A stretch of 35,191 bases of DNA from IMG/VR virus record IMGVR_UViG_2713896779_000022; one strand, given 5' to 3'. Position 1 is the stretch's first letter, and every line of letters starts with the position of its first letter. The position numbers were made by a program, and so were the translations under genes. A model generated the notes under the pieces. It saw only the letters and a program-made list of their open reading frames with translations, was not told the origin of the DNA and searched no databases. Source of the stretch: a virus (Duplodnaviria > Heunggongvirae > Uroviricota > Caudoviricetes). Below, piece after piece: positions 8,945 through 35,191 of this stretch.

Positions 8945-9508
8945 ATGCTAAATAATAGAGATATGAATATTAATGAACTTAAAGACTGTATTCACTATGA
9001 AGTAATCGGTAGCGAGCGTCCTTTCTCCTGGCGAAAGGCAATTGTTCGCGCAATAAAACATAGAAGAGTTCGTTATTTATTTTGGTGGCGCATAGCCAAA
9101 TACCTTTTTGATAAAGGCGGATACTGTCGGAAGATTGCGGGGAAAATAGAACGTTTCATTCTTGATAAATATAATGTAACAGTCCCTTTAACTGTAAATA
9201 TAGGGAAAGGCTTTGATATTTCTTATCTCAATAGTGTTGTTATCGGTCACAAAGTAACCATCGGTGAAAATTGTTCAATAAAACCAGGGGTAACTATTGG
9301 GCTACGTGGTGATTTTAATGATATGGATATTGTTATAGGACATAATGTGACCATTGGTTGTAATGCCACCATTCTTGGTGGCAAAGTGCGTATAGGAAAC
9401 AATGTCACAATAGGTGCTCATGCATTGGTATTGCATGATATTCCTGATGATTCAACATTCATCACTAAATTTCAGTCTGAAGTTATCTGCTCGTCCTCCC
9501 GCACATAA
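8945..9508 (+). CDS. hexapeptide-repeat (left-handed beta-helix) O-acetyltransferase, WcaB/CysE/LacA-like; cargo gene at the Z/fun position
   Basis: Repeated [LIV]-G-x-x-[VI]-x-I-G hexapeptides ([45 protein letters not shown]); strongly AT-rich versus flanking tail genes; convergent with G. Confidence 0.8.
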
Positions 9509-10089
9509 CCCTGATTCATCAGCTCTGGCCATACGATATCCGGAGCTGTACTGGTGTCAATTCGACTCACTAATACTCTGTATTTTCTCCAGGAATCCAG
9601 TTGTGAATTTTCCTCGTTTGTTGCTATTTCAAGATTAACTGCATCCTGCAGAATTGCGATGTTATCTGTTGCCTCCTGGATCAACCTTGCCTTTTTCTCT
9701 TCCGCTTCCCGTATCCGAAACAGTTTTTCTGCTTCCTCATCCTTCACCCAGGATACGCCGTCCCACTTCTGATACTCCCCTGCTGGCGACAACCAGGTGA
9801 CATTCTCTGGTAGCGGTCCGGGTTCAGAAATAAACAACGCGTCCCCCGAGGCCACGTCATAGACCGTTTTACCACGATGGTCTTCAACAATATTCCACGA
9901 TTCATTTTCACTGTTAAAAACTGCCACAAAGCCAGCAGGAATTTCCGGTGGGGCGATATCTGTAGAATTAGCTGGCAGCCCTGTATGAGGTGGAATATAT
10001 GCGTCACCTTCACCAATAAACTCATTAGTTCCGGCCAGCAGGTTATAAATTTTTACAGTACGTGATTGTTCACTCATTCTGAATGCCAT
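9472..10089 (-). CDS. G: tail fiber assembly protein (Tfa/gpG-like chaperone)
   Basis: 205 aa immediately downstream of H, start overlapping H stop (TAATG). Confidence 0.85.
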
Positions 10090-20369: not shown

Positions 20370-22121
20370 ATGATTCAGGACGCTTTTGTGCGCCAGCGTG
20401 CGCGGCAACTTTACTGGCAGGGTTATCCGCCCGCAGAAATATCACGTCTGATGGGAATAAACCCGAACACGATTTATGCGTGGAAAAAACGCGACCAGTG
20501 GGATGAAACGCCACCCGTGCAGCGTGTCACGCAGTCCATCGATGCGCGCCTCATCCAGCTTACTGAAAAACAGAATAAAACAGGCGGTGACTTTAAGGAA
20601 ATAGACCTGCTGACCCGGCAGCTTAAAAAACTGCATGATGGCCAGCCGGATGCGACGGTCACAGGAAAGAAAGGCCGGGCGAAAAAACTCAAAAATCATT
20701 TCACGCCGGAACAGATTGCCGCACTGCGGGAAAAAATCATCAGCAGGCTGGAGTGGCATCAGCGGGGCTGGTTTGATTCCCTGACCCTTTGCAGGGAAGC
20801 CGGGATACGTAACAGGATGATCCTGAAATCCCGACAGATTGGGGCGACCTGGTATTTTGCACAGGAAGCTCTGCTGATGGCGCTGCGTGACGATGTGGCG
20901 CAACCTTACCAGCGTAACCAGATTTTTTTGTCTGCGTCGCGTCGTCAGGCGTTCCAGTTTAAAAGCATTATTCAGAAGGCCGCGGCTGAAGTTGATGTGG
21001 AGCTGAAAGGGGGCGATAAAATCATCCTCTCCAACGGCGCAGAGCTGCATTTTCTCGGCACTTCTGCTGCGTCGGCACAGTCCTATACGGGCAATTTTTA
21101 TTTTGATGAATTTTTCTGGGTCAGTCGCTTTGCTGAACTGCGCAAGGTAGCTGGCGCTATGGCAACCCTCAGCGGACTGCGGCGCACCTACTTCTCCACG
21201 CCATCCACCGAAACGCACGAGGCATACGCCTACTGGAACGGCGACCGCTGGAACGAGAAAAAGGCCTCGCATAAACGCCAGCGTTTTTCTGTGGACTGGA
21301 AAACGCTGCATAACGGGCTTATCTGCCCTGACCGGACGTGGCGACAAATTGTCACGCTGGAAGATGTGGTTAATCACGGCTGGAAACACACCGATATTGA
21401 CGAAATCCGTGATGAAAACACCGAAGGCGAGTTCCTCAATCTCTATATGTGTGAGTTTGTTCGCGAAGGGGAATCGGCATTTAACCTGAATATCCTGATT
21501 GGCTGCGGTGTTGACGGATACGACGACTGGAAAGACTGGAAACCTTTTGCTCCCCGACCGATGGGGAATCGTCCGGTATGGATTGGGTATGACGCAAACG
21601 GCAGCAGTGGCAACGGCGACAGCGGCGCTGTGTCCGTGGTGGTTCCTCCGGCTGTTCCTGGTGGCCGTTTTCGAACGGTGGAGACGCGACGCGTTCAGGG
21701 GCTGGAGTTTGAAGAACAGGCCAGAGTCATTGAAGAGTTCACGTATCGCTACAACGTGGAACACATCGGCATTGATGTGACGGGCGGGAACGGGGAGGCT
21801 GTTTATCAGATAGTGAAACGGTTTTTCCCTGCTGCTATTCCGTACACCTTCACGCTGTCATCAAAACGGTCGCTGGTACTGAAAATGCTGCAAATAATGC
21901 GTGCCGGGCGGTGGGAATACGATCGCGCCGAACGCGAGCTGGTCGCGGCCTTTAACGCCGTGCGTAAGGTGAAAACACCGGGCGGCTTTATCACTTACGA
22001 AACGGACCGCGCGAGGGGGATCAGCCACGGCGACCTTGCGTGGGCAACCATGCTTGCTGTCATTAACGAACCGATTGGCGGCGAAGGAGAAAACGAGCGT
22101 TTCACGGTTATGGAGTTCTGA
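20370..22121 (+). CDS. P: terminase large (ATPase) subunit P
   Basis: 583 aa, P2 gpP-like size, divergent from O. Confidence 0.95.
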   Translation: MIQDAFVRQRARQLYWQGYPPAEISRLMGINPNTIYAWKKRDQWDETPPVQRVTQSIDARLIQLTEKQNKTGGDFKEIDLLTRQLKKLHDGQPDATVTGKKGRAKKLKNHFTPEQIAALREKIISRLEWHQRGWFDSLTLCREAGIRNRMILKSRQIGATWYFAQEALLMALRDDVAQPYQRNQIFLSASRRQAFQFKSIIQKAAAEVDVELKGGDKIILSNGAELHFLGTSAASAQSYTGNFYFDEFFWVSRFAELRKVAGAMATLSGLRRTYFSTPSTETHEAYAYWNGDRWNEKKASHKRQRFSVDWKTLHNGLICPDRTWRQIVTLEDVVNHGWKHTDIDEIRDENTEGEFLNLYMCEFVREGESAFNLNILIGCGVDGYDDWKDWKPFAPRPMGNRPVWIGYDANGSSGNGDSGAVSVVVPPAVPGGRFRTVETRRVQGLEFEEQARVIEEFTYRYNVEHIGIDVTGGNGEAVYQIVKRFFPAAIPYTFTLSSKRSLVLKMLQIMRAGRWEYDRAERELVAAFNAVRKVKTPGGFITYETDRARGISHGDLAWATMLAVINEPIGGEGENERFTVMEF

Positions 22122-23167
22122 TGAGCAGAAAAAATAAAAAAGTGCGCATGAGTTCACGCATTGATCTCGCTGATGCGCTCAGGAAAGAATCATCGCTCAG
22201 TGCATTCACATTTGATGGTCCTTATCGCCTGACCGGGCATGACCTGCTGGACAATATGTACTGTGCTGATAACGGGCGGTGGTATGAAACCCCGGTGGAC
22301 TGGTACGGTCTGGCAAGAGCTGCCCGGCAAACGTCCTGGCATCAGTCTGCGCTTTACTTTAAGCGCAATGTATTACTCGGTTGCTACATCCCGCACCCGC
22401 TGCTTTCCCGGCAGGATTTCTCGGCGCTGGCGCTGGACTGGTTTGTGTTCGGTAACGCATTCCTTGAGCTTCGAAGCAATATGCTCGGCGAACCGCTTAA
22501 ATTACGGCACGCACTGGCGAAATACATGCGACGCGGAAGCGATCTTGAATCATGGTGGTATGTGCAGGATGGCAAGGACGCGTTTCAGTTTCGCCCTGGC
22601 AAAGTGTGCCACCTGATGAATCCGGACATTAACCAGGAAATTTACGGCATGCCGGAATATCTTGGCGCATTACTCTCGGCCAGCCTGTCTCATTCGGCGG
22701 ACATGTTCAGAAAACTGTATTACGACAATGGATCCCACGCCGGGTGCATCATCTACATCGGTGCAGCGCAGGTAAACCGCGAAAGCATGGACTCCCTGAA
22801 AGAAACGTTACAGGGTGCGCGTGGTGGTGGTGCGTTTAAAAACGTGCTCATCCATGCTCCCAACGGGGGCAAAGAGGGGGGGCAAATTTTGCCGTTCCAG
22901 CAGATCACCGCAAAGGATGAGTTCATGAATGTTAAGGCGGCATCCCGTGATGATGTGCTGGCTGCGCACCTCGTTCCGCCGCAACTGATGGGGGCGATGC
23001 CGGGCGAAAAAAGTGCGTTTGGTGATGTGGAGAAGGCCGCGCGGGTTTACGCAATTAACGAGCTGATGCCCGTCATGGAGGCCATGAAGCACATCAATGA
23101 CTGGCTTGGCGAAGAGGTGATCCGCTTTAACCCTTACGCACTGTTAGACACCCAGCCCACATCCTGA
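22121..23167 (+). CDS. Q: portal vertex protein Q
   Basis: 348 aa, start overlapping P stop (TGATG); P2 gpQ size and position next to the cos region. Confidence 0.9.
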   Translation: MSRKNKKVRMSSRIDLADALRKESSLSAFTFDGPYRLTGHDLLDNMYCADNGRWYETPVDWYGLARAARQTSWHQSALYFKRNVLLGCYIPHPLLSRQDFSALALDWFVFGNAFLELRSNMLGEPLKLRHALAKYMRRGSDLESWWYVQDGKDAFQFRPGKVCHLMNPDINQEIYGMPEYLGALLSASLSHSADMFRKLYYDNGSHAGCIIYIGAAQVNRESMDSLKETLQGARGGGAFKNVLIHAPNGGKEGGQILPFQQITAKDEFMNVKAASRDDVLAAHLVPPQLMGAMPGEKSAFGDVEKAARVYAINELMPVMEAMKHINDWLGEEVIRFNPYALLDTQPTS

Positions 23168-23194
23168 CGCGCTTCGCTTGTCTGCTGCTTCGCC

Positions 23195-23217
23195 GGGGCA
23201 TAAAAAATTTATGCCCC
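23195..23217 (+). other. strong hairpin downstream of Q (possible terminator or cos-associated structure)
   Basis: GGGGCATAAA-aaa-TTTATGCCCC, 10-bp stem and 3-nt loop; no U-tract follows. Confidence 0.4.
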
Positions 23218-23590
23218 GACTCTCCAGCTCCTGTATCAGTCAGATAATTTCACGACGCCTTCCAGTTTATCGCCACCATCGACAGTCAGACTCTTACGCA
23301 ATCCCACCGCGTTGACTGCATGTTCTCGCCGTCTCAGTGCGATTTTGACGGCCTTACCTTTCACCCCATAAATCAAAAGCCCTCACGTCTTTTTCACGCT
23401 CAGCGTGAGAAATACAGCCATTCTGTTGTATCTCTGCGACATCGTTCAGGGAATGCTATTTACCCCCTGAAACGCGGGCTGTTCCCCCGTCACCTGCGCG
23501 CAGAAAAAACGCGTTTTTTTGTGCACGCACGGATCCTTGACGGATCCAGCCGCCATGCGGGCCGGAAGGGTAAAAAGTCGTTCAAAAAAA

Positions 23591-23631
23591 TTGTGCAAAT
23601 TTGTGCACTATCGTGCAGTGTGCATCGTGCT
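23591..23631. repeat. array of GTGCA iterons with ~10-bp periodicity
   Basis: TTGTGCA at 23591 and 23601, then GTGCA at 23613 and 23620 and GTGCT at 23627; ~60 bp upstream of the membrane-protein ORF, inside the Q-to-cargo non-coding region. Confidence 0.45.
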
Positions 23632-23696
23632 GTTTTCTGCGCAAAAAACGGATGGTAAATTTGTTCGTAGCAGGGAAATTTTAATGAGCGCAAGAC

Positions 23697-24227
23697 ATGA
23701 AGAAAGATTCATATCCTTATTTGATTTGCATGACTGTTTCAGTGCTAGGGATTATTTTCCTCTTTTACTGGTGGAGGGCAGATATCTACAGGATTACATA
23801 TCTTAATTCGCGTATATCCAATTATTACATCTTGTGTAGTATGGGTATATCCTTTTTCTTCTCCTTGTTTCTGGTGAAGAGGGGGGTAGTGAAGCAAAGT
23901 GGCTGGAAAGGACTGTCGGAATACCTGAAGGTTTATGCTGGCTCTTGCATTCTTACAGGGATATTCCTGATTATCCCTCTTATGATGGTGACTTATTTTT
24001 TACCAGGAGTAACATCATCATATGTTGCACCGTATGAGTATACATCCGGTAGTTCAAGAAGCTGTTCCGGAGCGTTTGTTGATGATCCCGATCTGCATAA
24101 AAATATTCTTATTTGCTATCCGTATGGTAACTATGAATATGACAATATTATCTATGTTGAAAAGAAAACTAATGCATTGGGCGTTGTTGTGACGTATGCA
24201 CAGACTGCACGAGACGATGCTGAATAA
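23697..24227 (+). CDS. AT-rich cargo gene: polytopic membrane protein of unknown function
   Basis: 176 aa with three predicted TM helices and a Tyr/Ser-rich C-terminal domain; markedly lower GC than the phage backbone. Confidence 0.6.
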   Translation: MKKDSYPYLICMTVSVLGIIFLFYWWRADIYRITYLNSRISNYYILCSMGISFFFSLFLVKRGVVKQSGWKGLSEYLKVYAGSCILTGIFLIIPLMMVTYFLPGVTSSYVAPYEYTSGSSRSCSGAFVDDPDLHKNILICYPYGNYEYDNIIYVEKKTNALGVVVTYAQTARDDAE

Positions 24228-24318
24228 GATACTACAGAGATAGTCCACTTTTTTTGTTTATTTGTCGGGATAAAAACAAATTACCCCGACTCACCATGTA
24301 TTAATCTTCCGCTTTAAG

Positions 24319-24702
24319 TTAGTCTTGTAGCTGCGCTGTCCTGCTATGCAGCAAAGCGGCGTACTTTAATGCGTCCTGTGCTTTCTGTAATTTAAGTGCA
24401 TAGTCAGTGGCGATTTTTTCCAGTTCAGCGATTCGGTTGTCTTTGGTTTCCAGCCAATCAAGTAGCGCCAATACTTCAGGATCCCCGACATCCAACACTG
24501 TTACGCGTGATTTTTCATAATGTTCGTCGGCAAGAGTTCGGCCAATTTTGAAATCTCCATCATCACCATAACCGGAGCAGGCATAAACAACCTGTGCTCC
24601 AGATATTCGCTGAATTGACATTTCCTCGCCGCAAATAGGGCATTTCGGTACTGGCACAGGTGAATAACGTTCACGTAATGCCTGATAGTTGATTTCGCTC
24701 AT
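24319..24702 (-). CDS. hypothetical protein with N-terminal Cys cluster (zinc-ribbon-like) and C-terminal coiled coil
   Basis: 127 aa; CPICGEE...YACSG then heptad-rich helix (IAELEKIATDYALKLQKAQDALKYAALL); downstream of parR on the same strand. Confidence 0.55.
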   Translation of the reverse strand: MSEINYQALRERYSPVPVPKCPICGEEMSIQRISGAQVVYACSGYGDDGDFKIGRTLADEHYEKSRVTVLDVGDPEVLALLDWLETKDNRIAELEKIATDYALKLQKAQDALKYAALLHSRTAQLQD

Positions 24703-24765
24703 TAAGTCGTTCTCTTTGTTTATGTTCTGAGGTGGAGAGCAGGGCGAACTCGCCCTGATGTTGTG

Positions 24766-25077
24766 TTATTCAGGAAATAACGCCCGGATATTTCCGGCCA
24801 TCTGACTGGTTATCTGTGCGGTTGATACTGGCTGTGATGCGGGGCGTTCTGTCCTGGTTTGTGTCAGGGATAACGCTTCATCGTCAGCCCATGCAGCCAG
24901 TCGGTAAGCCTCTGCCGGATTAATTTTCATAAGTGCCAGTCCGGCCAGAAAAGCCACGCGTTGACCACTTTTGCGGGCTTCTGGTGTAAGGCTGTCCAGC
25001 CAGGCGCATGCTTCGCCTTCGTTCTTGACGGCGGCGGGCTTCAGATAGAAACTTATCCGTCTGGTTGGTGTCGTCAT
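24766..25077 (-). CDS. parR: ParR/StbB-like centromere-binding adaptor
   Basis: Start at MTTPTRRISFYLKP with RBS AAGGAG 7 nt upstream, 4 nt after parM stop; resembles R1 ParR N-terminus (RRTIAFKL...LTAGLALY vs RRISFYL...FLAGLALM). Confidence 0.7.
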   Translation of the reverse strand: MTTPTRRISFYLKPAAVKNEGEACAWLDSLTPEARKSGQRVAFLAGLALMKINPAEAYRLAAWADDEALSLTQTRTERPASQPVSTAQITSQMAGNIRALFPE

Positions 25078-25081
25078 TGGT

Positions 25082-26041
25082 TTACTCCTTGTCCATTGCG
25101 TACAGCCCATTAACCAGAGCAAACTGTGGCACCCCGTCCGCGATGAAAGTCGCATTAACTCCGCAGGCTTCGCGGATAGCGGGTGCCACAATCTCCGCCC
25201 CGCCACCGACAACCATCACCCGCCCGTAACCCGAAAAGCCCGCCAGCGCGCGGATCACGCGTTGTTTCAGTGTTTCTTCCTTTTCACGAATAACCGCCAT
25301 CAGGCTGGCGTAATGCGCGTCATTGTGGATGTGCTGGCGCAACCAGGCTTCATCATGGCGATGTTCGATAATGGTATTGGCGATGTGGTGACTGGTACGC
25401 ATACCGTTAGTGGCCATCACCGACAGTACGGCATCGGCCATCAGGGAAACGCCTACGTGTGGATCGCAAAACACCTGGCTGATACCTGCCAGTTGCCCCT
25501 GAACCTTTGCCACATCCAGTGTGGTTCCGCCTAAATCCACAATCAGCAGGGATTCAAACGGACTCATGTCAGCCAGTGCTTTAAAGCCAGCCGGAATGGA
25601 TTCAGGCATAACCCGTACGTTACGGATAGTGAATGCTTCGCCGTTCTGGTACTCCACCGGGCGCATAACGTTCGATTTTTTGCGGCTGATGTTGGCCATA
25701 TCCGGCTGTGCGTTTGTGTCGAAATACTCGCTCAGTGGCAGGGTGACAACCACATCCACCTCCTGTGGCGTGATGCCTGATTTGACCAGTGCGTGATGAA
25801 TGGCAATGACATTCACATCGCTGTACTGGTATTGCGTGTCGGTCGTCTGGACAAAGCGATCGCTGACCGGATCAAAACCATAGCGCACGCCATCAAGCAT
25901 GTAGTTCGCGGGCTGCGTGCCACCGAACGGCGCAGACCATTCCGACTTGAAGCTGTTCGGGCTGATGGCGTTGCGGCGTTCGCCGTTCTCAGCCCATGCC
26001 AGCTTGATGTTGGTGGAGCCGTCGTCGATACAAATTTTCAT
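25082..26041 (-). CDS. parM: ParM/StbA actin-like plasmid segregation ATPase
   Basis: 319 aa; collinear resemblance to R1 ParM along the whole length (IDDGSTNIKL.W, ISPNSFK.EW, YSDVNV.A.HHAL, IRNV.VMPESIPAG, DLGGTTLD, GGGAE, LVNG.Y). Confidence 0.9.
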   Translation of the reverse strand: MKICIDDGSTNIKLAWAENGERRNAISPNSFKSEWSAPFGGTQPANYMLDGVRYGFDPVSDRFVQTTDTQYQYSDVNVIAIHHALVKSGITPQEVDVVVTLPLSEYFDTNAQPDMANISRKKSNVMRPVEYQNGEAFTIRNVRVMPESIPAGFKALADMSPFESLLIVDLGGTTLDVAKVQGQLAGISQVFCDPHVGVSLMADAVLSVMATNGMRTSHHIANTIIEHRHDEAWLRQHIHNDAHYASLMAVIREKEETLKQRVIRALAGFSGYGRVMVVGGGAEIVAPAIREACGVNATFIADGVPQFALVNGLYAMDKE

Positions 26042-26072
26042 GTCGCTTTTCCTTATGTTGATTAATTAATCG

Positions 26073-26181
26073 TTTACAGGATTTTTAAATCCCGCTTTTG
26101 CCTGTTTTGTGCGCGCCTCATATATCGCGGCACGTTTTTTGCTCATTTACGGGATTTGTGAATCCCGTTTCTGTCTGTTTT
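26073..26181. repeat. parC-like centromere/operator: two ~36-bp direct repeats each with a GGATTT(n2-4)AAATCC palindrome, flanking the parM promoter
   Basis: TTTACAGGATTTTTAAATCCCGCTTTTGCCTGTTTT (26073-26108) and TTTACGGGATTTGTGAATCCCGTTTCTGTCTGTTTT (26146-26181); the second copy overlaps the last 12 codons of gene A. Confidence 0.6.
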
Positions 26182-28959
26182 TTTGTTTCCACTGGTCAGG
26201 CTACCCCGCAGCAGGTCTGCTTTGCGGTGGGCGCGTTCAGTGGTTTCACTGATTCTCTGTGCGTGCTCTGCGTCACGGATGGCGCGCAGCATGTCAGAAA
26301 GCACGGTAACGGGGGTGGGCATGGTGTTCTGGTCCTGCTGAAGTGTGGATACCAGACGTGCGGCGGCTTCGGGGTCTGATGCCCCCAGCTGTTCCAGATA
26401 GCTGGCGACCGGGTTATGGCGGATCTCCGTGCTGCTTACGCCGTGATTACGGCTCAGGCGCTGCCAGAGCTGCGTGATTTGGCTGTCCGGGCGGGTATCC
26501 GGTTTGCGTACAATTTCAAATCCCTGCGGTGCAATGATGCTGCCGTCAACGTACAGGCTGCCGCCCCGTAACAGGTGCTGCATCTGCTGTTCACCAATAT
26601 GCAGGCCGAGAGATTCAGCAGACTCCCGCCATTCTTTAGCGAGTAACTCGTGGTTATCAGGCAAAGGCTGTGGCTGTTTGCGGCTCTGTGTCCAGTTCTG
26701 CATTTCATCGCTGCTGTTTTTTGCCTGTTTGTCACGAAGCGAACGCATCAGCGCCCGGCGTTCGTGCCGTTTCAGTGAATGCATCCATTCGTTCACTTCA
26801 ACGCCGTCAGGAAGCTGCGGCCACGGTGCTGGCCGTTCTTCCGGCTGTTCTGTCCCGTTGTTGTCCGTTTCCTGTACACGGGGACAGTTATTGCCACGAG
26901 TCCAAGGGGCGGCAGGGCCGCCCTGAAGGTCAAAACCATTTTCGTGGGCGTTGTCTTCCGGTTCTGGTTTACGTCTTACCAGCTTCCAGTTATCCGGATG
27001 CGTGCACACACGGGAGGATTCCCCGATGAGTGGTGACCAGATCCCGTAAATCTGTACGCTCTGTTCGCCGTAATCGTTCAGCTCATCTGCGAGGTCGTAG
27101 GCGGTGCGAATCAGGTAGTCCTTGCGTGGAACAAGCACGCCACCCTGTTTTTCAATGTAGGTGGCAAAACACCCGGCATCGGCGGCAGCGAGTACCGCAT
27201 CCATTGCATCATCTTTCAGCCGTTGCGGGCCTTCCGGATTGCGTGCCATCTGGCTGGCAAGGCGGCGCAGTTCACGCCACACCTGACGGGAGGGGATGCC
27301 AAAGAACTGGAACTGACGGACCCGGTGAAGGCGCGCCCAGCCGATGGCGCGCTCCACGCTCTCGGCCATTGATTTACCTGTTTCGTGGTCAACGCGTGGC
27401 TTGCCCGTTTTCGGGTCGATGCCATCCACGGCGCGGCTGTCCAGGTTCTTTCCGATGTAGGTGGCGATGTAGCTGGTTGGCGTGCCTTTTGAGCCGTCGA
27501 CGTACTCCGCCTTAAAACGCGGAGTTATGTCATTGCCCTGCTCGTGGCGGTCTTCCTGAATGGCAATATCGCAGACGTGGGACACGATGGTTACAATCTC
27601 GTCAGGATGAGCAAAAACCATCATGTGCCAGTGCACCGTGCCGTCATGATGAGGCTCCACCGTGCGGATGCCATACCAGCGCAGGCCGTCGCGGTTCAGT
27701 TTTTTGCGGACCGCCGCAAAAAACGTGTTAACCAGGTAATCGCTGGAGTCGTGCATAGTGGCCCCGTTCCATTTGGGATTCGGATGACCGTTCTCCGTTG
27801 TTGCGTGGTATTTTGACGGGCAGGTGACAGTCAGAAACACCGCTCTGTCGCCACGGGCTTCGGCCAGAAGTTCCAGCCCCTTCATGGTGGCCATCATTTC
27901 TGCCTTACGGTGAACCGGGTTACTTACTCCCGCGTAATACACTGTCTCGAGATCAATCGTGAACCCGTCTTCATTTTCCAGCATGAAACTTTTCAGGAAA
28001 TCGCGTGTTTTCTCGCGCTGTGCGCGAAACTCGCTTAACGCGTCCTGGCTCAGATAGGGTGATGTTTTTCTGGAAACCAGACAGGCGGCGCGGAGTTGTT
28101 CTTCTCTCCACTCGCAACGTAACAGCCACAGTTTGCGTTTCCACCATTCCGCACAGGTCAGGCGAAGGATTGCGCCCGGCAGCAGCTCCGTGTCCGGTTC
28201 GTTCCTCCGGTCTTTGTCTGTTGTCAGTGCGTCATAATGTGGAGGCATGGCGTGCAGGTGTAACGCCATGCGGGCCAGCATCTGATACGCCTTCAGCGTT
28301 ACATCCATGGTCAGTTCGCCATCAGTCGCGCCAAAGCCATCGCAGAGTTTTTCGAAGGTGCTGCTGAACATCGCCGCCGTCATGGTGGCCAGCGTCTGTA
28401 TCTGGTGTTTGTTGAGCTGCGGCAGGTAAAGCAAATCGTCCAGGCGTTCGCGTCCGGCAAGGGAGCGATAACCCGGTGTCAGCCAGCGGTGATCGGTGCG
28501 GTCCAGACGTTCGAATATTTTGCGCAGGGTTCCGCGCGCGTAGCGTTCAGCCTGCCAGCTCTTTTTGCCTTTCTGGCGATCGGCTTCCTGTTTTTTGCGC
28601 AGGAAAGAGAGGTGGCGGCTCAGAGGTTCACGCAGATAAACGGGAAGCACCTTCAGTGTGGCAAAAGCACGGGCCACCGGGTCTTGTTCTGTTGCCTGAC
28701 GCTTGCTGATGATGCTTTGTGCCAGCTTTTCACGCTGTCCGGCTTCCTCAAGGGATGCCATGAGTTTTTTACCCACGGTGGATTGTGCGAAAAAGGCTTC
28801 CTCCTTCGCTTCCTGTTCTTCCAGAGCCTTTTTGTCTGCCTCAAGGTAGTAACGGATGGCGCGTTGCAGGTCGGTTTCAGTTTCCTGCCTGTGCTCCGTA
28901 AATCTGGCCGGATCAATGGCTGGCCGTGGTTCATTCCAGCTCCATGCAAACTCATTCAT
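26143..28959 (-). CDS. A: replication initiation protein A (rolling-circle endonuclease)
   Basis: Start at MNEFAWSW (ATGA overlap with upstream ORF); contains HUH-type motif TVHWHMMVF and catalytic Tyr pair in YIATYIGK; ~938 aa, longer than P2 gpA. Confidence 0.9.
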   Translation of the reverse strand: MNEFAWSWNEPRPAIDPARFTEHRQETETDLQRAIRYYLEADKKALEEQEAKEEAFFAQSTVGKKLMASLEEAGQREKLAQSIISKRQATEQDPVARAFATLKVLPVYLREPLSRHLSFLRKKQEADRQKGKKSWQAERYARGTLRKIFERLDRTDHRWLTPGYRSLAGRERLDDLLYLPQLNKHQIQTLATMTAAMFSSTFEKLCDGFGATDGELTMDVTLKAYQMLARMALHLHAMPPHYDALTTDKDRRNEPDTELLPGAILRLTCAEWWKRKLWLLRCEWREEQLRAACLVSRKTSPYLSQDALSEFRAQREKTRDFLKSFMLENEDGFTIDLETVYYAGVSNPVHRKAEMMATMKGLELLAEARGDRAVFLTVTCPSKYHATTENGHPNPKWNGATMHDSSDYLVNTFFAAVRKKLNRDGLRWYGIRTVEPHHDGTVHWHMMVFAHPDEIVTIVSHVCDIAIQEDRHEQGNDITPRFKAEYVDGSKGTPTSYIATYIGKNLDSRAVDGIDPKTGKPRVDHETGKSMAESVERAIGWARLHRVRQFQFFGIPSRQVWRELRRLASQMARNPEGPQRLKDDAMDAVLAAADAGCFATYIEKQGGVLVPRKDYLIRTAYDLADELNDYGEQSVQIYGIWSPLIGESSRVCTHPDNWKLVRRKPEPEDNAHENGFDLQGGPAAPWTRGNNCPRVQETDNNGTEQPEERPAPWPQLPDGVEVNEWMHSLKRHERRALMRSLRDKQAKNSSDEMQNWTQSRKQPQPLPDNHELLAKEWRESAESLGLHIGEQQMQHLLRGGSLYVDGSIIAPQGFEIVRKPDTRPDSQITQLWQRLSRNHGVSSTEIRHNPVASYLEQLGASDPEAAARLVSTLQQDQNTMPTPVTVLSDMLRAIRDAEHAQRISETTERAHRKADLLRGSLTSGNKKTDRNGIHKSRK

Positions 28960-29345
28960 GGCTGGTATCCCGTCACGCGCTGCCACTCCTGCGAGAAGAG
29001 GGCAGAAAGGCGGTTAAATTCAGCGGTGTATTCACTCAGCGAGGCACACCCGCCAGCAGTGCGATGCGCCAGCATTGCCGCAAATACGGAGGCCGGGGAG
29101 TCGTAATACGCCAGCAGTGATTCTCCGTGTGGTGTCAGGCAGTGCAACGCCAGCCCGTGTGGTGTGAAGTCCACGCGGTAGCAGTCGTCTACTGTGAAAT
29201 AAAGGGTGTCTGCATTCTCCGGTTTTGTGGTGCGTGCTCTGTTGTCACGACCACGGATGTAGAGATCAAATAATCCCTGAAGAACGGGAGCCAGACGGGT
29301 GTCCTGTGTGCGCACCCATCTTGTGAAGTCATGAGCGTCAATCAT
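28956..29345 (-). CDS. hypothetical early protein, translationally coupled to A
   Basis: 129-aa ORF whose stop overlaps the A start (ATGA). Confidence 0.6.
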   Translation of the reverse strand: MIDAHDFTRWVRTQDTRLAPVLQGLFDLYIRGRDNRARTTKPENADTLYFTVDDCYRVDFTPHGLALHCLTPHGESLLAYYDSPASVFAAMLAHRTAGGCASLSEYTAEFNRLSALFSQEWQRVTGYQP

Positions 29346-29417
29346 GCTGCAATTCTCTTTACTACAGATGTGCGAAGGCCTCCCGCCGCAAGGTGCAGGA
29401 AAGGCCCGGAACAGGAA

Positions 29418-29648
29418 TTAATGGAGTTTGTTTTGCTGCTGGAAGAGTTGTTGCAGCTCGCGCAGATCATCCGCCAGATAGCTGAAAACAGAGGCGGAAT
29501 AGATGTTCGATAGCGCGTGGCTGCGCTCATGCAGCATATTGATGTGCATGATTTGCGCGACGCGTGATGCGCGGAAAAGTCTACGGTTGATTTCAGTCTG
29601 GATGTGACGACGCGCAGCGTATGCGCGCTGTTGTTTGCGGTTTGCCAT
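29418..29648 (-). CDS. hypothetical small basic protein
   Basis: 76-aa ORF with RBS AAAGAGG 8 nt upstream of the ATG. Confidence 0.5.
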   Translation of the reverse strand: MANRKQQRAYAARRHIQTEINRRLFRASRVAQIMHINMLHERSHALSNIYSASVFSYLADDLRELQQLFQQQNKLH

Positions 29649-29823
29649 GGTGTGGCCTCTTTGCTCGGTGATAGAAATAGCTCACCATCCAGAGTTGAGA
29701 ATCTCGGGGTGGCGAGACGTACAGGGTTCTCAACACCGGAGAGCAAAGAATCCGGCCCGACCGAAGTCGGCCCCGTACGCCCCGCCATAATTCTGACGCG
29801 AAAAAGACGTGGCAATACAGTAC

Positions 29824-29848
29824 GCACAAAAAAACCGCTGGCGCGGTT
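29824..29848 (-). terminator. candidate intrinsic terminator inside the early region
   Basis: Minus strand: stem AACCGC / GCGGTT with 4-nt loop followed by TTTTTTT (plus-strand A-run 29828-29834). Confidence 0.4.
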
Positions 29849-29920
29849 ATGCGCTTTGCTCTGTATCGGGTTGAGAATCCCGGCACCCGTTTTATGAGGT
29901 GCAGCGGAAATGTAACCTGA

Positions 29921-29949
29921 CCGATTGCGGCATGGCAAGCGGTTTTTTT
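29921..29949 (+). terminator. candidate intrinsic terminator on the plus strand (antisense to the early operon)
   Basis: CCGATTGC-ggcatg-GCAAGCGG (one mismatch) followed by TTTTTTT at 29943-29949; no plus-strand protein gene ends here. Confidence 0.45.
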
Positions 29950-29970
29950 GTGTGTGCATGTTCTGGTTTC

Positions 29971-30270
29971 TTACTGGTTCAGAAAAAAATCAAAAACCTT
30001 GTCAATGCGTTGCAGCAGCTCTTGCTGCATTGCTTCCGGCGTTTCCGGTTCGCCAGGTGCCCCCAGCGTTGCGCAGAAATCAGCGATTTCATGATGGAGC
30101 GTCAGGCGAATGGCAGGAGCCGTGGTTTTGGCGTGCTCCAGCTGATCCAGCAGTGCCAGCACAGCAGACGGCGAGAGCATTGCGCGAAATGCCAGTAATT
30201 TTTGAGGAGTTGCCATTCGTTGCAGGGCAAATGCCAGTTCGCGTAGCTTCTGGTGGTTGGTGGTGCTCAT
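29971..30270 (-). CDS. hypothetical early protein
   Basis: 99-aa ORF, stop/start coupled with the neighbouring ORF. Confidence 0.55.
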   Translation of the reverse strand: MSTTNHQKLRELAFALQRMATPQKLLAFRAMLSPSAVLALLDQLEHAKTTAPAIRLTLHHEIADFCATLGAPGEPETPEAMQQELLQRIDKVFDFFLNQ

Positions 30271-30533
30271 GTTCTGGCTTCCTTCAGTAGCTGGTTAAAC
30301 ATGTGAGTAAGTGGATTGCTACACCCGAACGGCATCGGGTTTACGTGGTAAGAAGCCTGGCCTCCAGTTTTGCGAGCGCGACCACCTGTGCTGCGGTTTG
30401 TTCTGATGACTAAGCCGCCGCGCCAAAGTCGGCGTAACTCAGCATTAATAGCTGTGGTTGGGGTGTTCAGTGCTGCGGCGATTTCTCCGCCGCTACAACC
30501 CGGATGTGTAGTGATGTAGTCCAGAATGGTCAT
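30267..30533 (-). CDS. hypothetical early protein, possible winged-helix DNA-binding protein
   Basis: 88-aa ORF, translationally coupled to both neighbours. Confidence 0.55.
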   Translation of the reverse strand: MTILDYITTHPGCSGGEIAAALNTPTTAINAELRRLWRGGLVIRTNRSTGGRARKTGGQASYHVNPMPFGCSNPLTHMFNQLLKEART

Positions 30534-30733
30534 TTGCGTGGCTCCTGTACCTGTCGGATAAGATTCACCCGCGCCACGTTGGTGGCGCAGAAGTAAGTGC
30601 CGTCAGTGAGGTAGATGTGGTGTGCATCCTTTTCCGAACGATGTTTGTCGATAGTGGTAATCAGGCGTTCGTCGACCTCGTATTCGCGCCCTCTGGAGGT
30701 AAAGCGAATGACGGGAAAATGCTTAATTGCCAT
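30530..30733 (-). CDS. hypothetical early protein
   Basis: 67-aa ORF in the operon. Confidence 0.5.
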   Translation of the reverse strand: MAIKHFPVIRFTSRGREYEVDERLITTIDKHRSEKDAHHIYLTDGTYFCATNVARVNLIRQVQEPRK

Positions 30734-30756
30734 TGCGCCCCCTTTGTCCAGTAACC

Positions 30757-31131
30757 CTATGCGTTAAATACGGCACGTTGCGCGTCATCAATGAATACAG
30801 CTTGAGATCGTTCTATCAGGCGGAGATTTGTCAGAAGCTCTGACTCTTTTGTGTGGTAAGGCGTTATCAGGTATTTGCCGTGCAGTTCGGCAATAATGGT
30901 GTATTGCGTCATTATTGCCGAACCAAGAATGTAAATGCGGCGTCCAATGCTGGACGGATTCATGGCTGCAACTGTTGACTGTGTTTTAAGAGTGTCGATT
31001 TCTTTGCTCTGTTCCTCAATAATTTTGGCTGCTTCAGAGGTGGCTATTGCGATGGTCAGTGCGTAAAGCGCTGCCATATGTTGATTATCTTTCTGGGCTG
31101 CCCTGGACAGCTTGTCTTGCTCTGCTGACAC
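30757..31131 (-). CDS. hypothetical early protein
   Basis: 124-aa ORF; start uncertain (internal Met at MAALYALT; an alternative short frame with RBS GGAGAT begins at ~31178). Confidence 0.5.
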   Translation of the reverse strand: MSAEQDKLSRAAQKDNQHMAALYALTIAIATSEAAKIIEEQSKEIDTLKTQSTVAAMNPSSIGRRIYILGSAIMTQYTIIAELHGKYLITPYHTKESELLTNLRLIERSQAVFIDDAQRAVFNA

Positions 31132-31266
31132 TATTTTTAATGTATTGATAATATTTTTTTTCTTTTGCGTTCATTTTATATCTCCGTTATTTACGTGTGC
31201 GAATACCTCCGCGAATGCGGATAGTTTTCAGGTTTTCAGGTTTAATCTGGTGTTTTGTTTAAGCTG

Positions 31267-31380
31267 TTATTTGTCAGTGAAAAAGCGTTCAATCTTTTTT
31301 ACTGAATGAATAATTCGCATAATCCCAATGGCGCAGGCCACCGAAATAATCAGAACAAGCCATGAGATAAATATACTCAT
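31267..31380 (-). CDS. candidate small hydrophobic peptide (37 aa, single TM)
   Basis: MSIFISWLVLIISVACAIGIMRIIHSVKKIERFFTDK; ATG overlaps the stop of the upstream 80-aa ORF (ATGA); below the track cutoff; AT-rich. Confidence 0.3.
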   Translation of the reverse strand: MSIFISWLVLIISVACAIGIMRIIHSVKKIERFFTDK

Positions 31381-31619
31381 GCGATATTCCCCAGCTTATA
31401 CGGTTCAATGTGTTCCCCGCATTCTGCGGCACAGATCAGCTCGGAAAGTTCGTTCAGTGCATCCAGATCATCAGCGTAAAAAGCAACGTCATACAAACTC
31501 CGGATTGCCCTGGTCAATGAATCACGGGCTGCATGTTCAGCATGAGCGCCTGATGCACTTAAGCGAAAATAAAATCGTTCAAGTGCTTTGTTAATGAGAG
31601 TTTTATATTCTTTGCCCAT
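31377..31619 (-). CDS. hypothetical early protein
   Basis: 80-aa ORF. Confidence 0.5.
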   Translation of the reverse strand: MGKEYKTLINKALERFYFRLSASGAHAEHAARDSLTRAIRSLYDVAFYADDLDALNELSELICAAECGEHIEPYKLGNIA

Positions 31620-31630
31620 CGCAACGCCCT

Positions 31631-31909
31631 TTAATCTGCTTTCTGAATTTCAGCTTCTGAATCCATACAAATAATTTCGATATAGGGTTCATCGCCATTA
31701 ACCTGACGTGCCTTTTCAGCTTCGCTAATGATTTCTCGTACGGTCTGGTACGGAAGCTCCACAGTCAGGCGCGTACCGTTCAGATAAACGTAAGTAGCTG
31801 CGTTTTTTTCGGATGGAACAACTCCGTCAATGGCTGATGCGCGTAATAACAGTTCACCGCGAAAATAAATAAAACGGATAAATACACCTTGTGCATGCTC
31901 TTTGGTCAT
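31631..31909 (-). CDS. hypothetical early protein
   Basis: Track ORF 31631-31969 overlaps the upstream gene; internal Met at MTKEHAQG taken as start. Confidence 0.45.
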   Translation of the reverse strand: MTKEHAQGVFIRFIYFRGELLLRASAIDGVVPSEKNAATYVYLNGTRLTVELPYQTVREIISEAEKARQVNGDEPYIEIICMDSEAEIQKAD

Positions 31910-31919
31910 AAAGCACCTG

Positions 31920-32270
31920 TTATAAATCAGCCTGTTTAATAAAACTTTGCCCGCGAAGCAGACGATCAACCGTGCGAAGTGCTTCGTATAATGTGAAATC
32001 CTGCCCGAAGTGATTGTCGCCGCAGTTCAATGCAAAAATGCGGTTTCCGGTAAATGGATTGCGTGGGCATTTGTGGACCACGATTCCAGCTTTCTCAATC
32101 AGCCAGGCATGCTCGCCGATTTGTTTTACAGCGTGGCCATCCGGTGTTGCGTGCGTCTCGTTCAGGTTATAGCGACTGTTACTACGTGATGCACTGGTAG
32201 CGACGTGGTGTACATGGCGTTCTACGCCATTACGAAATTTGGAGTATGGATTATTAGCGTTTTTTTTCAT
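31920..32270 (-). CDS. hypothetical early protein
   Basis: 116-aa ORF. Confidence 0.5.
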   Translation of the reverse strand: MKKNANNPYSKFRNGVERHVHHVATSASRSNSRYNLNETHATPDGHAVKQIGEHAWLIEKAGIVVHKCPRNPFTGNRIFALNCGDNHFGQDFTLYEALRTVDRLLRGQSFIKQADL

Positions 32271-32291
32271 GATGGTGCTCTGTTCATTGTT

Positions 32292-32495
32292 TTAGCTGTT
32301 AGCCAAAGCGTCTTTTAACATCGCCACAAGGTTTACTTCAGGCTTTTCCATTTTGGCGCGTTTGGGGCGGATAATAATTCGACCGTCAGCCAACATCTTT
32401 TTGCATGTATTAAGAGGGATACCTGTTATCTCTGCATATTTCTGCAGGGATACATAGGGGGCATTCACATTGATATTGATGGTTATACCTGACAT
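32292..32495 (-). CDS. Cox/Apl-like small HTH regulator (putative excision/switch protein)
   Basis: 67 aa; segment YVSLQKYAEITGIPLNTCKKMLADGRIII matches the pattern of P2 Cox (YQEFAKLIGKSTGAVRRMIDKGKLPVI); second gene of the early operon. Confidence 0.55.
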   Translation of the reverse strand: MSGITININVNAPYVSLQKYAEITGIPLNTCKKMLADGRIIIRPKRAKMEKPEVNLVAMLKDALANS

Positions 32496-32511
32496 CCCAC
32501 TAGCCTCCTGA

Positions 32512-32718
32512 TCAGGAAGATTTGTTTTGTTCTTTCTGGGTTAGCTCTAGGCCGCGAAGGAAGATCATGCGCGCCATGTTAGAGGATGAGCGTTGTTCTT
32601 TAGCTGCCATTTCATCAATGACGGCTCGCTCCTCGAGGGACAGCCGAAGTGCCAGTCTTGGACCTGTGGCGGTGTTACGCGGAATGCGTGATCTGGTATC
32701 GTGAAGAACTTGTTTCAT
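32512..32718 (-). CDS. ribbon-helix-helix (CopG/Arc-type) DNA-binding protein; first gene of the early operon
   Basis: 68 aa; RHH signature LSLEERAVIDEMAAKEQRSSSNMARMIFLRGL; divergent from repressor C. Confidence 0.65.
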   Translation of the reverse strand: MKQVLHDTRSRIPRNTATGPRLALRLSLEERAVIDEMAAKEQRSSSNMARMIFLRGLELTQKEQNKSS

Positions 32719-32793
32719 AGTGGTATATTGTGATCATCTAATAGCTCGTGAAATCATTTTGGTATCAAAAAAGATACCTGTCAAGGTTTTTGT
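32719..32793. promoter_or_regulatory. immunity switch region (early/repressor promoters and operators)
   Basis: 75-bp gap between divergent RHH gene and C; direct repeats TGGTAT at 32721 and 32760; palindrome GGTATC-aaaaaa-GATACC at 32761-32778. Confidence 0.5.
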
Positions 32794-33198
32794 ATGAAAA
32801 ATGATATTGGTCAGCGGTTGCGTGAGGAAAGGGAAAGATTGGGACTTAGTCAAGTTGCCATGAGCGACATTGGTGGAGTCAAAAAGCTAACTCAGCTTAG
32901 ATATGAGAAAGGAGATAGCTTTCCTGATGCTGCGTATTTGGCAGCGCTGTCTCGTTTTGGCCTTGATGTTCAGTATGTTGTGTTGGGAATTCACTCACCT
33001 GAAACTTATAACGATGATGAGCAGGAGTTGATTACTCGCTTTCGAGCAGCTTCGTTAGATGTGAAAAACGCGGTGATTGGGGCTTTAAAAGGTGCGATCA
33101 GTGAAAAGGAAACTCAGCCATCAGGACGTGAGTTAAATATTTCTGGTGGTAATAACCGTATCGCTGGTCGTGACTATAACGAAACTAAGGGTAGGTGA
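32794..33198 (+). CDS. C: immunity repressor C (HTH_XRE family)
   Basis: N-terminal XRE-type HTH (IGQRLREERERLGLSQVAMSDIGGVKKLTQLRYEKG); position divergent from the early operon and upstream of int, as for P2 C. Confidence 0.8.
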   Translation: MKNDIGQRLREERERLGLSQVAMSDIGGVKKLTQLRYEKGDSFPDAAYLAALSRFGLDVQYVVLGIHSPETYNDDEQELITRFRAASLDVKNAVIGALKGAISEKETQPSGRELNISGGNNRIAGRDYNETKGR

Positions 33199-33213
33199 TA
33201 GTAGGGAGGTGAC

Positions 33214-33537
33214 ATGGCCGTCAACTCAAACGGTTCAAACAATCGCGTTGCTGGGCGTGATTTTCACGAAAAGAATATTCAGATAGAGCGATATGATGGT
33301 TCTCATACCGTCAATATCGCAATCCCTTCGAATAATGATGATGACGATCGCCCTTTGCTTAAGGCTCAGCGTAAGGAGCTAAATAGCTTGGTTGCTGCTA
33401 TTGCAGAAGCTAGCAATACTGAAGCGTTTATTATTTGGCAAAAAGTACATGCGGAGATTGGTGTAGCTGGTATTGATGATATGATAGTAAATCAATATAA
33501 AACAGCGGAGAGTTTTCTGCATGCAATGCTTGAGTGA
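33214..33537 (+). CDS. hypothetical lysogenic-operon protein sharing an N-terminal motif with the repressor tail
   Basis: 107-aa ORF with strong RBS GGGAGG; N-terminus SNGSNNRVAGRDFHEK repeats the repressor C-terminus SGGNNRIAGRDYNET; ends at TGA 33535-33537. Confidence 0.6.
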   Translation: MAVNSNGSNNRVAGRDFHEKNIQIERYDGSHTVNIAIPSNNDDDDRPLLKAQRKELNSLVAAIAEASNTEAFIIWQKVHAEIGVAGIDDMIVNQYKTAESFLHAMLE

Positions 33538-33864
33538 TGTAAAGATCATGATGCCTGTAAGGCTCTTGTAAGTTTATTACTACGTAACAGTGAAGACTGT
33601 GGACTTCGACAAAAACTTCTGCGGTATTGCCATATCAATTTCGGTACAGGACGTTTAAACGATCTTACTCGTTCTCAGTTACAGTCTGCATTGTCGTGGT
33701 TAGAGCAACAATCGGCATCAAGCCACACAGAGAGTTCGACCTTACCAGAAGTCCGACTTCGTGCTTCAGAATTAATCCGACTTTATCCAAAAGAAATAAT
33801 ATTCTTTATCTGCGTAGGGGTTTTGGTAGGCGGTGTCATTTCTAGGGCGTTTTTTAATTTGTAA
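33538..33864 (+). other. in-frame continuation of the preceding ORF beyond a single TGA, encoding a C-terminal transmembrane segment
   Basis: 108 sense codons in the same frame as 33214-33537, no ATG, ending ...LYPKEIIFFICVGVLVGGVISRAFFNL*; either the broken 3' half of one gene or readthrough extension. Confidence 0.35.
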
Positions 33865-33893
33865 TCTTACTTGAGCTAAATTGAGGTAATGAT

Positions 33894-34241
33894 ATGAAAG
33901 TAAAAAATGTTCAACTATTAGTTACTTTTTTATCTATGTTTTCTTTTTCCGCCGTCGCAATGCCTTTTAAAACTATTGAACGTGAGAGTTTTAATGGGGT
34001 ATGGCCATTTAATACTGATGAGGTTCAATTACAGTGTCTTGATGGTAATCCTTATGTGATGAATTTTGACGATAATAAGTTATATGCACTTACAGGTTTG
34101 GCTCGAATAAAAGGTAAAACATTTGGTGCGTTACCGTTAGATAACAATAATCCATTTTGGCTAGATAATGATGCCGCCCCAGGGTTAAAAAAGAGTCTGG
34201 GGGATGTCACTAAGGCTGCATTTGATTTATGTGATAAGTAA
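33894..34241 (+). CDS. small secreted/periplasmic protein of unknown function (cargo gene)
   Basis: 115 aa with Sec-type signal peptide (MKVKNVQLLVTFLSMFSFSAVA) and two Cys; AT-rich; between C and int. Confidence 0.65.
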   Translation: MKVKNVQLLVTFLSMFSFSAVAMPFKTIERESFNGVWPFNTDEVQLQCLDGNPYVMNFDDNKLYALTGLARIKGKTFGALPLDNNNPFWLDNDAAPGLKKSLGDVTKAAFDLCDK

Positions 34242-34246
34242 CTAAA

Positions 34247-34358
34247 ATGTCGGTTCGTAAGATTCCATCAGGTAAATGGCTTTGCGAATGTTATCCCTAC
34301 GGGGCATCGGGAAAACGCATTCGTAAACAGTTTGCGACAAAAAGTGAGGCGCTTGAGG
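34247..34358 (+). pseudogene. int: P2-type tyrosine integrase, N-terminal ~37 codons only; truncated by IS insertion
   Basis: MSVRKIPSGKWLCECYPYGASGKRIRKQFATKSEALE resembles the P2 Int N-terminus (...GRNGKRIRRKFDKKSEAVAFEKY); frame runs into IS end TGTACTGG at 34359 and stops at TAG 34370-34372. Confidence 0.7.
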
Positions 34359-35191
34359 TGTACTGGCAATAGCGGACACTACCATTTGTTCTTTTTTTAA
34401 GCAGCCATCTGATGATATTTTTCCCTGAAGGCTGCCGGGGAGATATTCCCCAGACGAGAGTGACGACGCTGACGATTGTAGAAAATCTCAATGTATTCCC
34501 GTATTACTGAGATGGCTTCATCCCGGTTATTAAAACGATAGTGGCTCAGGCTCTCATTTTTCAGCGTTCCCCAGAAGCTTTCCATCGGAGCGTTGTCGTA
34601 ACAGTTACCTTTACGCGACATTGATGTTTTCAGACCAAACTGCTCCTGTATGACCCGGTAATCGTATGCGCAGTACTGTGAACCTCGATCAGAGTGGTGG
34701 ATTAGCCCGGCAGGTGGGCGCTGGCTCCTGAGCGCCATAAACAGAGCTTTACCTGTCAGCTCTTTTGTCATGCGCTCTCCCATGGCGTAGCCGACAATTT
34801 CGCACGTATAAACATCTTTGATGCCAGCGAGGTACAACCATCCCTCCTGTGTGGCAACATACGTCAGGTCCGCCACCCAGACCTGATTTGGTGCTGTAGG
34901 AGCGAACGTCTGGTTCAGCAGATTTGGCGCAACTGGCAGATTGTGGTTCGAGTTCGTAGTCGCTCTGAACTTGCGTTTCTGCTTACAGCGTAGCCTTAGC
35001 TCCTTACGAAGACGTGCCAGTCGGTCACGACCAACGATGATGCCATTCTCTGCCAGCTCCGTCTGGAGCCGCCGGGTTCCATATGTTTCGCGAGTGCGGA
35101 TATGTGCCACCTTAATCTCCAGTTTTAGCCGCTCATCACTTTGTTTTCTGTCTGAGGGTTCATGCTGTACCCAGTTGTAATAACCGCTCCT
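34359..35191 (-). mobile_element. IS3-family insertion sequence (distinct from the left-edge IS), inserted in int; continues beyond window
   Basis: Terminus begins TGTACTG at 34359 (IS3/IS150-type end); OrfB-like transposase on the minus strand stays open to the window edge. Confidence 0.8.
34397..35191 (-). CDS. IS3-family transposase OrfB (partial, N-terminal part and OrfA outside window)
   Basis: DDE-domain blocks (VWVADLTYV, HHSDRGSQY, CYDNAPMESFWGTLK); frame remains open upstream of the track start to position 35191. Confidence 0.85.
   Translation of the reverse strand, partial: RSGYYNWVQHEPSDRKQSDERLKLEIKVAHIRTRETYGTRRLQTELAENGIIVGRDRLARLRKELRLRCKQKRKFRATTNSNHNLPVAPNLLNQTFAPTAPNQVWVADLTYVATQEGWLYLAGIKDVYTCEIVGYAMGERMTKELTGKALFMALRSQRPPAGLIHHSDRGSQYCAYDYRVIQEQFGLKTSMSRKGNCYDNAPMESFWGTLKNESLSHYRFNNRDEAISVIREYIEIFYNRQRRHSRLGNISPAAFREKYHQMAA

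Follow-up and report, generated by a model that had tools for sequence, protein, structure and literature searches.

Two questions are raised by the right end of this prophage: whether its integrase gene (int) has really been broken by an insertion sequence and, if so, whether the break changes the way in which the element is maintained. The stretch of DNA analyzed here, referred to as the window, comprises 35,191 nt. The first-pass annotation had proposed that a P2-type int close to its end is truncated by an IS3-family element, and that the prophage is therefore either a locked-in element or one that relies on parMR-type maintenance.

The window is a member of the P88/Xuanwuvirus type of P2-like phages. 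A tblastn search with the P88 proteome recovered, in the order of P88, ogr, gpD, sheath, tube, gpE/E′, tape measure, and gpU, and likewise baseplate and fiber genes, lysis genes, head genes, portal, terminase, ParR, ParM, gpA, and early genes. Phage P88 (Peduoviridae, classified in Xuanwuvirus), Escherichia phage 520873, and the leuZ–yecA prophage of O121:H19 strains match the window in gene order, and their proteins are 94–100% identical to its own for gpA, ParM/ParR, and most of the late genes. At the DNA level, positions 22000–34353 are 100.0% identical in a single alignment (12.3 kb) to eight complete O121-type genomes (O121 or O121:H19 wherever a serotype is stated), and positions 992–25000 are 99.8% identical to complete O121-type genomes. 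Owing to these identities, the source is considered to be an O121:H19-type strain. The window copy nevertheless carries two IS3-family insertions that are missing from the complete O121 genomes at these sites. The integration site in the relatives is the 3′ end of the leuZ tRNA-Leu gene, with yecA as the neighboring gene. In E. coli O121 RM8352, the prophage is bounded by a 124-bp direct repeat composed of the 3′ 55 nt of leuZ and 69 nt downstream, and one copy of this repeat lies 107 nt past the int stop codon; both attachment sites are outside the window.

The int gene forms the end of an operon. Its first gene (32794–33198, plus strand) encodes an HTH repressor of the C type, i.e., the immunity repressor, with matches to Pfam HTH_31 and to PHROG transcriptional repressor families. 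It is followed by a Flk_N-like gene, a DUF2511/YebY-like gene (33894–34241, plus strand; Pfam PF10709), and int, all of which read rightwards, toward the attachment site. The DUF2511 gene lies just upstream of int; in RM8352, int directly follows it and precedes yecA, and a 333-aa integrase is encoded next to it in the ten relatives shown. On the minus strand, a Cox-like excisionase/repressor gene (32292–32495; phrog_575, E = 1.2e-27) is apparently intact.

Several features of the remaining gene content were also recorded. The replication endonuclease gpA (26118–28986) is one 947-codon ORF, to which residues 4–927 of P88 gpA align in a single frame. The identical gpA DNA of RM8352 is flagged ‘frameshifted’ by PGAP with other end coordinates, and a C-terminal frameshift relative to the reference proteins is possible. 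A 205-codon ORF on the minus strand (29342–29959) weakly resembles Ash/transcriptional regulators. It overlaps, in a different frame, a 76-codon ‘derepression protein’ gene (29421–29648; 92% identical to that of P88), and gene callers disagree as to which of them is real. The idea that the window departs from the O121 prophage, its gpA being intact and a 205-aa ORF replacing the derepression gene, was rejected, as both differences come from differing gene calls on DNA that is 100.0% identical over 22000–34353. The tail-fiber gene (10089–11957) encodes 622 aa in the window versus about 666 aa in RM8352, which may explain a length difference of ~132 nt and the two-piece alignment with O121 genomes. 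Resemblance of this fiber to that of P88 is confined to the first 300 residues; by tblastn of the window, the P88 DNA invertase gave no match and the fiber-assembly proteins only a weak partial one. A hok/gef-family toxin gene (1312–1449, minus strand), 100% identical to its P88 homologue, is located close to the left end of the prophage, between ogr and the IS there.

The junction inside int is sharply defined. The ATG at 34247 coincides with the start that RefSeq annotates for WP_001300279.1, the intact 333-aa integrase of RM8352, and the start of int is thus intact, as had been proposed. In a pairwise alignment, window positions 34247–34353 (107 nt) are identical to RM8352 int, and the identity stops exactly at 34353/34354, past which RM8352 reads CTCTTATGAGCGCC and the window reads TGAGGTGTACTGGCAATAGCGG. 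The first 125 nt of int in ten further relatives are the same as in RM8352, so that the 107 nt of the window match all ten. Likewise, in a megablast search of window positions 30000–34360 against 5426 complete E. coli genomes, the 100% matches in O121:H19 strains end at 34353. What remains is a 5′ fragment of a prophage tyrosine integrase gene (34247–34353, plus strand; 35 codons plus 2 nt), split between int nucleotides 107 and 108 by the exact terminus of IS600, TGAGG at 34354; the k-mer spanning this near junction is GAGGCGCTTGAGGTGTAC. Exact matches of this length on the two sides (107/107 and 838/838 nt) go far beyond what chance would give. The observation of an IS-truncated integrase is therefore confirmed as a real, precisely defined IS600 insertion, and the interruption of a P2-type integrase near its 5′ end by an IS3-family element was correctly recognized. 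Besides the naming of the IS3-family element as IS600, two details of the earlier description needed correction. The IS end had been placed at TGTACTGG (34359), but the true terminus lies 5 nt further left; and the truncation had been put after ~37 codons, although the native part consists of 35 complete codons plus a junction codon, in which CTC has become CTT with leucine kept.

When the region 33000–35191 was read directly and its ORFs were listed, the ORF starting at ATG 34247 was found to translate as MSVRKIPSGKWLCECYPYGASGKRIRKQFATKSEALEVYWQ and to terminate at TAG 34370–34372. This fused ORF (34247–34372, plus strand) has 41 codons and joins 36 native Int residues, MSVRKIPSGKWLCECYPYGASGKRIRKQFATKSEAL, to EVYWQ from the IS600 end. 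A look-up in the assembly collection gave no gene that encodes precisely this product.

The element itself occupies 34354–35191 on the minus strand and, being cut short by the window end, corresponds to the first 838 of 1264 bp of IS600 (IS3 family), with the terminal inverted repeat TGAGGTGTACTGGCAATAGCGGACAC. Over these 838 nt there is no mismatch to a complete 1264-bp copy, for which the PGAP annotation reads ‘IS3-like element IS600 family transposase’ with a ‘programmed frameshift’, and the segment is 99.4–99.8% identical to the top copies listed in other genomes. The window IS end starts TGAGGTGTACTGG at 34354, matching the reference copy, whose other end reads ...GGCTACCTCA. A minus-strand frame (34397–35191) with the Pfam domains rve, rve_3, rve_2, and HTH_21 is open over 265 codons to the window end and represents the orfB part of the transposase, including the rve DDE domain; its stop codon is at 34397–34399, and the transposase reads antisense to int. 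Both orfA and the site of the frameshift fall past 35191. IS600 is common in the species, with matches in 3048 of the 5426 complete E. coli genomes, and this lineage has 20–30 copies per genome according to the places found per record and the published data (PMC9397093); O121:H19 strain 51104 carries 27 IS600 and 10 IS629 copies (PMC9397093). A preference of IS600 for targets resembling its own end was considered and rejected. The idea arose from top matches that reached 6–10 nt into the flank (AGTGAGGTGTT at the locus L002 versus AGTGAGGCGCT in the window), but the apparent pattern resulted from the ranking of matches by coverage: among 103 distinct right-end flanks from IMG/VR, no base is strongly preferred at any of the 15 flanking positions, the highest count being 40/103.

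To judge what has been lost, the intact allele is informative. It contains an Int_N domain at residues 58–162 and a Phage_integrase catalytic domain, its catalytic-residue motifs (R204, H277, R280, H303, and Y312) all lie far downstream of the break, and it matches PHROG 1 and 11531, both ‘integrase’. The intact Int is 96% identical to that of Escherichia phage 520873 and 52–56% identical to those of the P2-like phages SopEPhi, PSP3, and ENT90, and for P88 and the members of Peduovirus the figure is ~39%. The immunity and int module of the window differs from that of P88. ‘P2-type’ is, on sequence grounds, a fair description of the interrupted gene. The window copy has neither a complete Int_N domain nor the catalytic domain with its R..HxxR..H..Y residues, and is a gene fragment rather than a functional member of the family. 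A second or intact int copy, which would have contradicted the proposed loss, is absent from the window: tblastn of the 333-aa Int matches only residues 1–36 (34247–34354), and the rest of the hits, with E > 2, are at chance level. Judged by its coding content, the window thus encodes no functional integrase.

Because the gene is physically split by the IS600 terminus, the locus can encode only the 41-residue peptide, and transcription of the repressor operon (C, Flk_N-like pseudogene, DUF2511 gene, and int) would now yield nothing else from int. The peptide is devoid of most of the N-terminal part, of the Int_N domain, and of the whole catalytic domain, so that no active integrase would be expected from this locus. 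P2-type site-specific excision requires Int together with Cox and the host factor IHF. From the sequence and these general requirements of P2-type recombination, we infer that self-catalyzed excision is very unlikely. The proposal that the prophage can neither excise nor integrate by its own integrase accordingly stands as far as the missing Int is concerned, and the loss of excision itself is an expectation derived from it. An intact remainder of int beyond the IS had been suggested as a possible rescue. This does not hold, since even a simple insertion would leave the catalytic part cut off from the start codon and from codons 1–36, and the transposase reads antisense to int. Loss of the prophage could still come about through homologous recombination between the 124-bp att repeats, and the Int of a related co-resident prophage could complement the defect in trans.

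The far end of IS600, the target-site duplication, the rest of int, and the adjoining att site lie beyond the window end at 35191, and the nature of the event has to be judged from the near junction and from other IS600 copies. According to our analysis, a simple insertion with a 3-bp duplication is most likely, because both fully visible IS600 insertions examined, at L002 (GTT) and L014 (GCC), are simple and flanked by 3-bp duplications. By analogy with these two, GCT at 34351–34353 is the predicted left copy of the duplication. IS600 would then have transposed into int of a P88/Xuanwuvirus-type prophage in an O121:H19-type E. coli. About 430 bp past the window end, after the GCT duplication, the other 297 codons of int would most likely follow, and with them the att site. 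The far junction predicted for a simple insertion is ...CCTCA-GCT-CTCTTATGAGCGCC, with the k-mer GCTACCTCAGCTCTCTTATG.

Neither junction was found elsewhere. The observed near junction, by exact search, and the predicted far junction, with a spacer of 0–8 nt allowed, are both absent from GTDB species-representative genomes, JGI metagenomes, and IMG/VR. A megablast search with the junction region and a synthetic far-junction query revealed no place covering both halves in the 5426 complete E. coli genomes, no record was found for the three junction-spanning ORF products, and the ten places shown by a look-up of DUF2511 neighbors all have an intact 333-aa int and no split allele. The absence of the predicted far junction, together with a window that ends inside the IS, might be taken to mean that IS600 marks the end-point of a deletion or inversion, produced by recombination between two IS600 copies or by a flanking deletion that the IS-excision enhancer (IEE) generates; in that case, the int remainder and the att site would have been lost or relocated, irreversibly. 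The lineage has the 20–30 IS600 copies per genome mentioned above, and IEE is reported to delete IS-flanking regions besides simple excision (PMC9397093). However, the near junction is likewise found nowhere, so that the negative result for the far junction says no more than that the collections lack the source genome, and the two fully visible insertions are simple ones with 3-bp duplications. A rearrangement is therefore regarded as unlikely.

The missing junction could also be explained by an assembly artefact, in which int and IS600 were mis-joined at a repeat and the real int is intact. Both window ends lie in multi-copy IS elements, which are common sites of assembly error. Yet, the switch from unique to IS sequence occurs exactly at the terminal base of IS600 (TGAGG, 34354), as transposition gives, whereas a collapsed repeat would normally be mis-joined inside the repeat and would not create a perfect terminus within a gene; the IS at the left end also stops exactly at its own terminus. 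An artefact is thus very improbable. Transposition of IS600 into int by simple insertion, with the transposase antisense to int and as part of prophage decay, is the best explanation and very probably the correct one.

Such an event would not be isolated. In E. coli 7_12_30A (NZ_CP074845.1; L014 3821–6251), the lambdoid int at argU is split by IS600; the IS is flanked by a GCC duplication and immediately followed by the 3′ part of the gene, and PGAP annotates both halves as partial integrase. As in the window, the IS has entered a prophage tyrosine integrase gene in its 5′ part, and the transposase reads antisense to int. The two cases differ in that the integrase at argU is of the lambda type and belongs to another prophage and attachment site, the break follows codon 62 rather than codon 36, and both IS ends are visible. 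Of 133 IS600 right ends in IMG/VR viral contigs, at least five distinct ones are situated at a truncated tyrosine integrase or no more than 35 nt away from it. The loci at which IS600 interrupts or ends such genes (L038, L102/L125/L081/L064, L114/L045, L048, and L067) belong to several unrelated prophages. Given the argU case and these at least five IMG/VR cases, disruption of integrases by IS600 is recurrent. It also has a counterpart in enterohemorrhagic E. coli (EHEC), in which IS elements are biased toward prophage regions and IS629 has been found within the excisionase gene of a Stx2c prophage (PMC5359411); for IS629 in O157 prophages, that paper cites Ooka et al. 2009. There too, IS3-family elements gather in prophages and hit excision and integration genes, but the element here is IS600 and the prophage is P2-like rather than lambdoid.

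With the integrase gone, the suggestion that parMR maintains the element in place of integration deserves consideration. Both genes are intact on the minus strand, parM at 25082–26041 and parR at 24769–25077 (module 24769–26041; Pfam StbA_N, ParM_N with E = 1e-81, and Plasmid_stab_B), and their presence would fit a plasmid-prophage partitioned by ParMR outside the chromosome, either already existing or emerging after the loss of Int. The products, however, are 99% (ParM) and 94% (ParR) identical to those of phage P88, and relatives with an intact int carry parMR in the same prophage; the module is thus part of the normal backbone of P88-type phages. In addition, 1539 of the 1541 matches to the int-proximal 4.4 kb (window 30000–34360) are chromosomal, and in the relatives, the prophage is located between leuZ and yecA and has an att repeat. 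The only replication gene recognized is the P2-type gpA nickase/replication endonuclease, several small early-region ORFs being without assignment, and an element without Int cannot leave the chromosome. A plasmid state is accordingly extremely improbable, and nothing suggests that partition replaces integration in this prophage. An actin-type ParM/ParR partition module in a chromosomally integrated P2-like prophage, conserved across P88-type phages, is an observation of its own; its role there is not obvious.

A more subtle question is whether the insertion is permanent. The prophage had been described as a locked-in element, which agrees with the very low likelihood of excision by its own integrase. 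The lock may not last, though: IEE excises IS600 from lacZ in O121:H19, restoring the gene (PMC9397093). The lacZ::IS600 allele of STEC O121:H19 in that study resembles the window in that the host lineage is apparently the same, a single IS copy splits the gene, and IEE could reverse the split. It differs in its target, lacZ versus a prophage integrase, and in that the window junction is in no collection searched and its far end is outside the window. In our analysis, IEE could either restore int or delete flanking DNA; this is a possibility only, and iee is not in the window. The int sequence expected after precise excision of IS600 is GAGGCGCTCTCTTATG. In an iee-positive O121:H19 host, int::IS600 might even act as a reversible lock, with rare precise excision restoring int in a subpopulation, a scenario that we consider quite unlikely. 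If it were true, restored cells could excise or lose the prophage, giving a phase-variation-like heterogeneity in prophage mobility. Since tail gene U is frameshifted, such a lock could affect only excision and curing and not virions, unless a helper phage supplied the tail.

This frameshift shows that int is not the only damaged gene. Tail gene U (8291–8771, plus strand) has an 11-bp deletion near 8551/8552 relative to P88 gpU, by which the tblastn match is split over two frames, and the gene is also annotated as ‘frameshifted’ in RM8352. The prophage was, to judge from this lesion, probably unable to make tails even before int was hit. The 216-codon Flk_N-like gene (33214–33864, plus strand) is a pseudogene as well: a CGA codon has become the nonsense codon TGA at 33535–33537 in comparison with an intact copy (L004). 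The gene is intact in most relatives, and ‘internal stop’ is noted in the RM8352 annotation. In both O121 genomes inspected, RM8352 and 16-9255, int is intact. Since RM8352, in which int is intact, carries annotations that match both lesions (the gpU deletion and the stop in the Flk_N-like gene), these most likely predate the IS600 hit, i.e., the prophage was most likely already defective before the insertion.

The second IS3-family element, at the left end of the window (1–991, plus strand; right part only), is IS1203/IS629-like, with the Pfam domains rve and HTH_21. Copies in O121 genomes share 99.9% identity with it, and places with an IS1203-family annotation about 95%; the element stops exactly at its own terminus (...CGGTTCA, 991). 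Window position 992 maps to position 9199 of the locus L013, 626 bp beyond the att repeat, which places the insertion 626 bp inside the other end of the prophage, in a hypothetical ORF that is WP_071529678.1 in RM8352. No complete genome spans the junction 991/992 in a single alignment, and the matches to complete genomes begin at 992. On the basis of these sequence comparisons, the IS600 insertion is recent and strain-specific. It would be one more lesion on a prophage that lacks an essential tail gene, and would reflect decay by way of the many IS3-family copies of the lineage rather than a change of lifestyle.

Collectively, the locus represents ordinary IS-driven prophage decay; this kind of event is well known, and the particular allele is unrecorded in the collections searched. 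Its importance beyond annotation is small: int should be labeled an IS600-disrupted integrase pseudogene, and the prophage a defective, probably non-excisable P88-type element. The junctions 991/992 and 34353/34354, which occur in no collection searched, could mark the strain or sublineage for typing, and the locus is usable as a PCR-scorable reporter of IEE-mediated IS600 excision. For the biology of these strains, it is a further example of IS3-family elements eroding the prophages of STEC.
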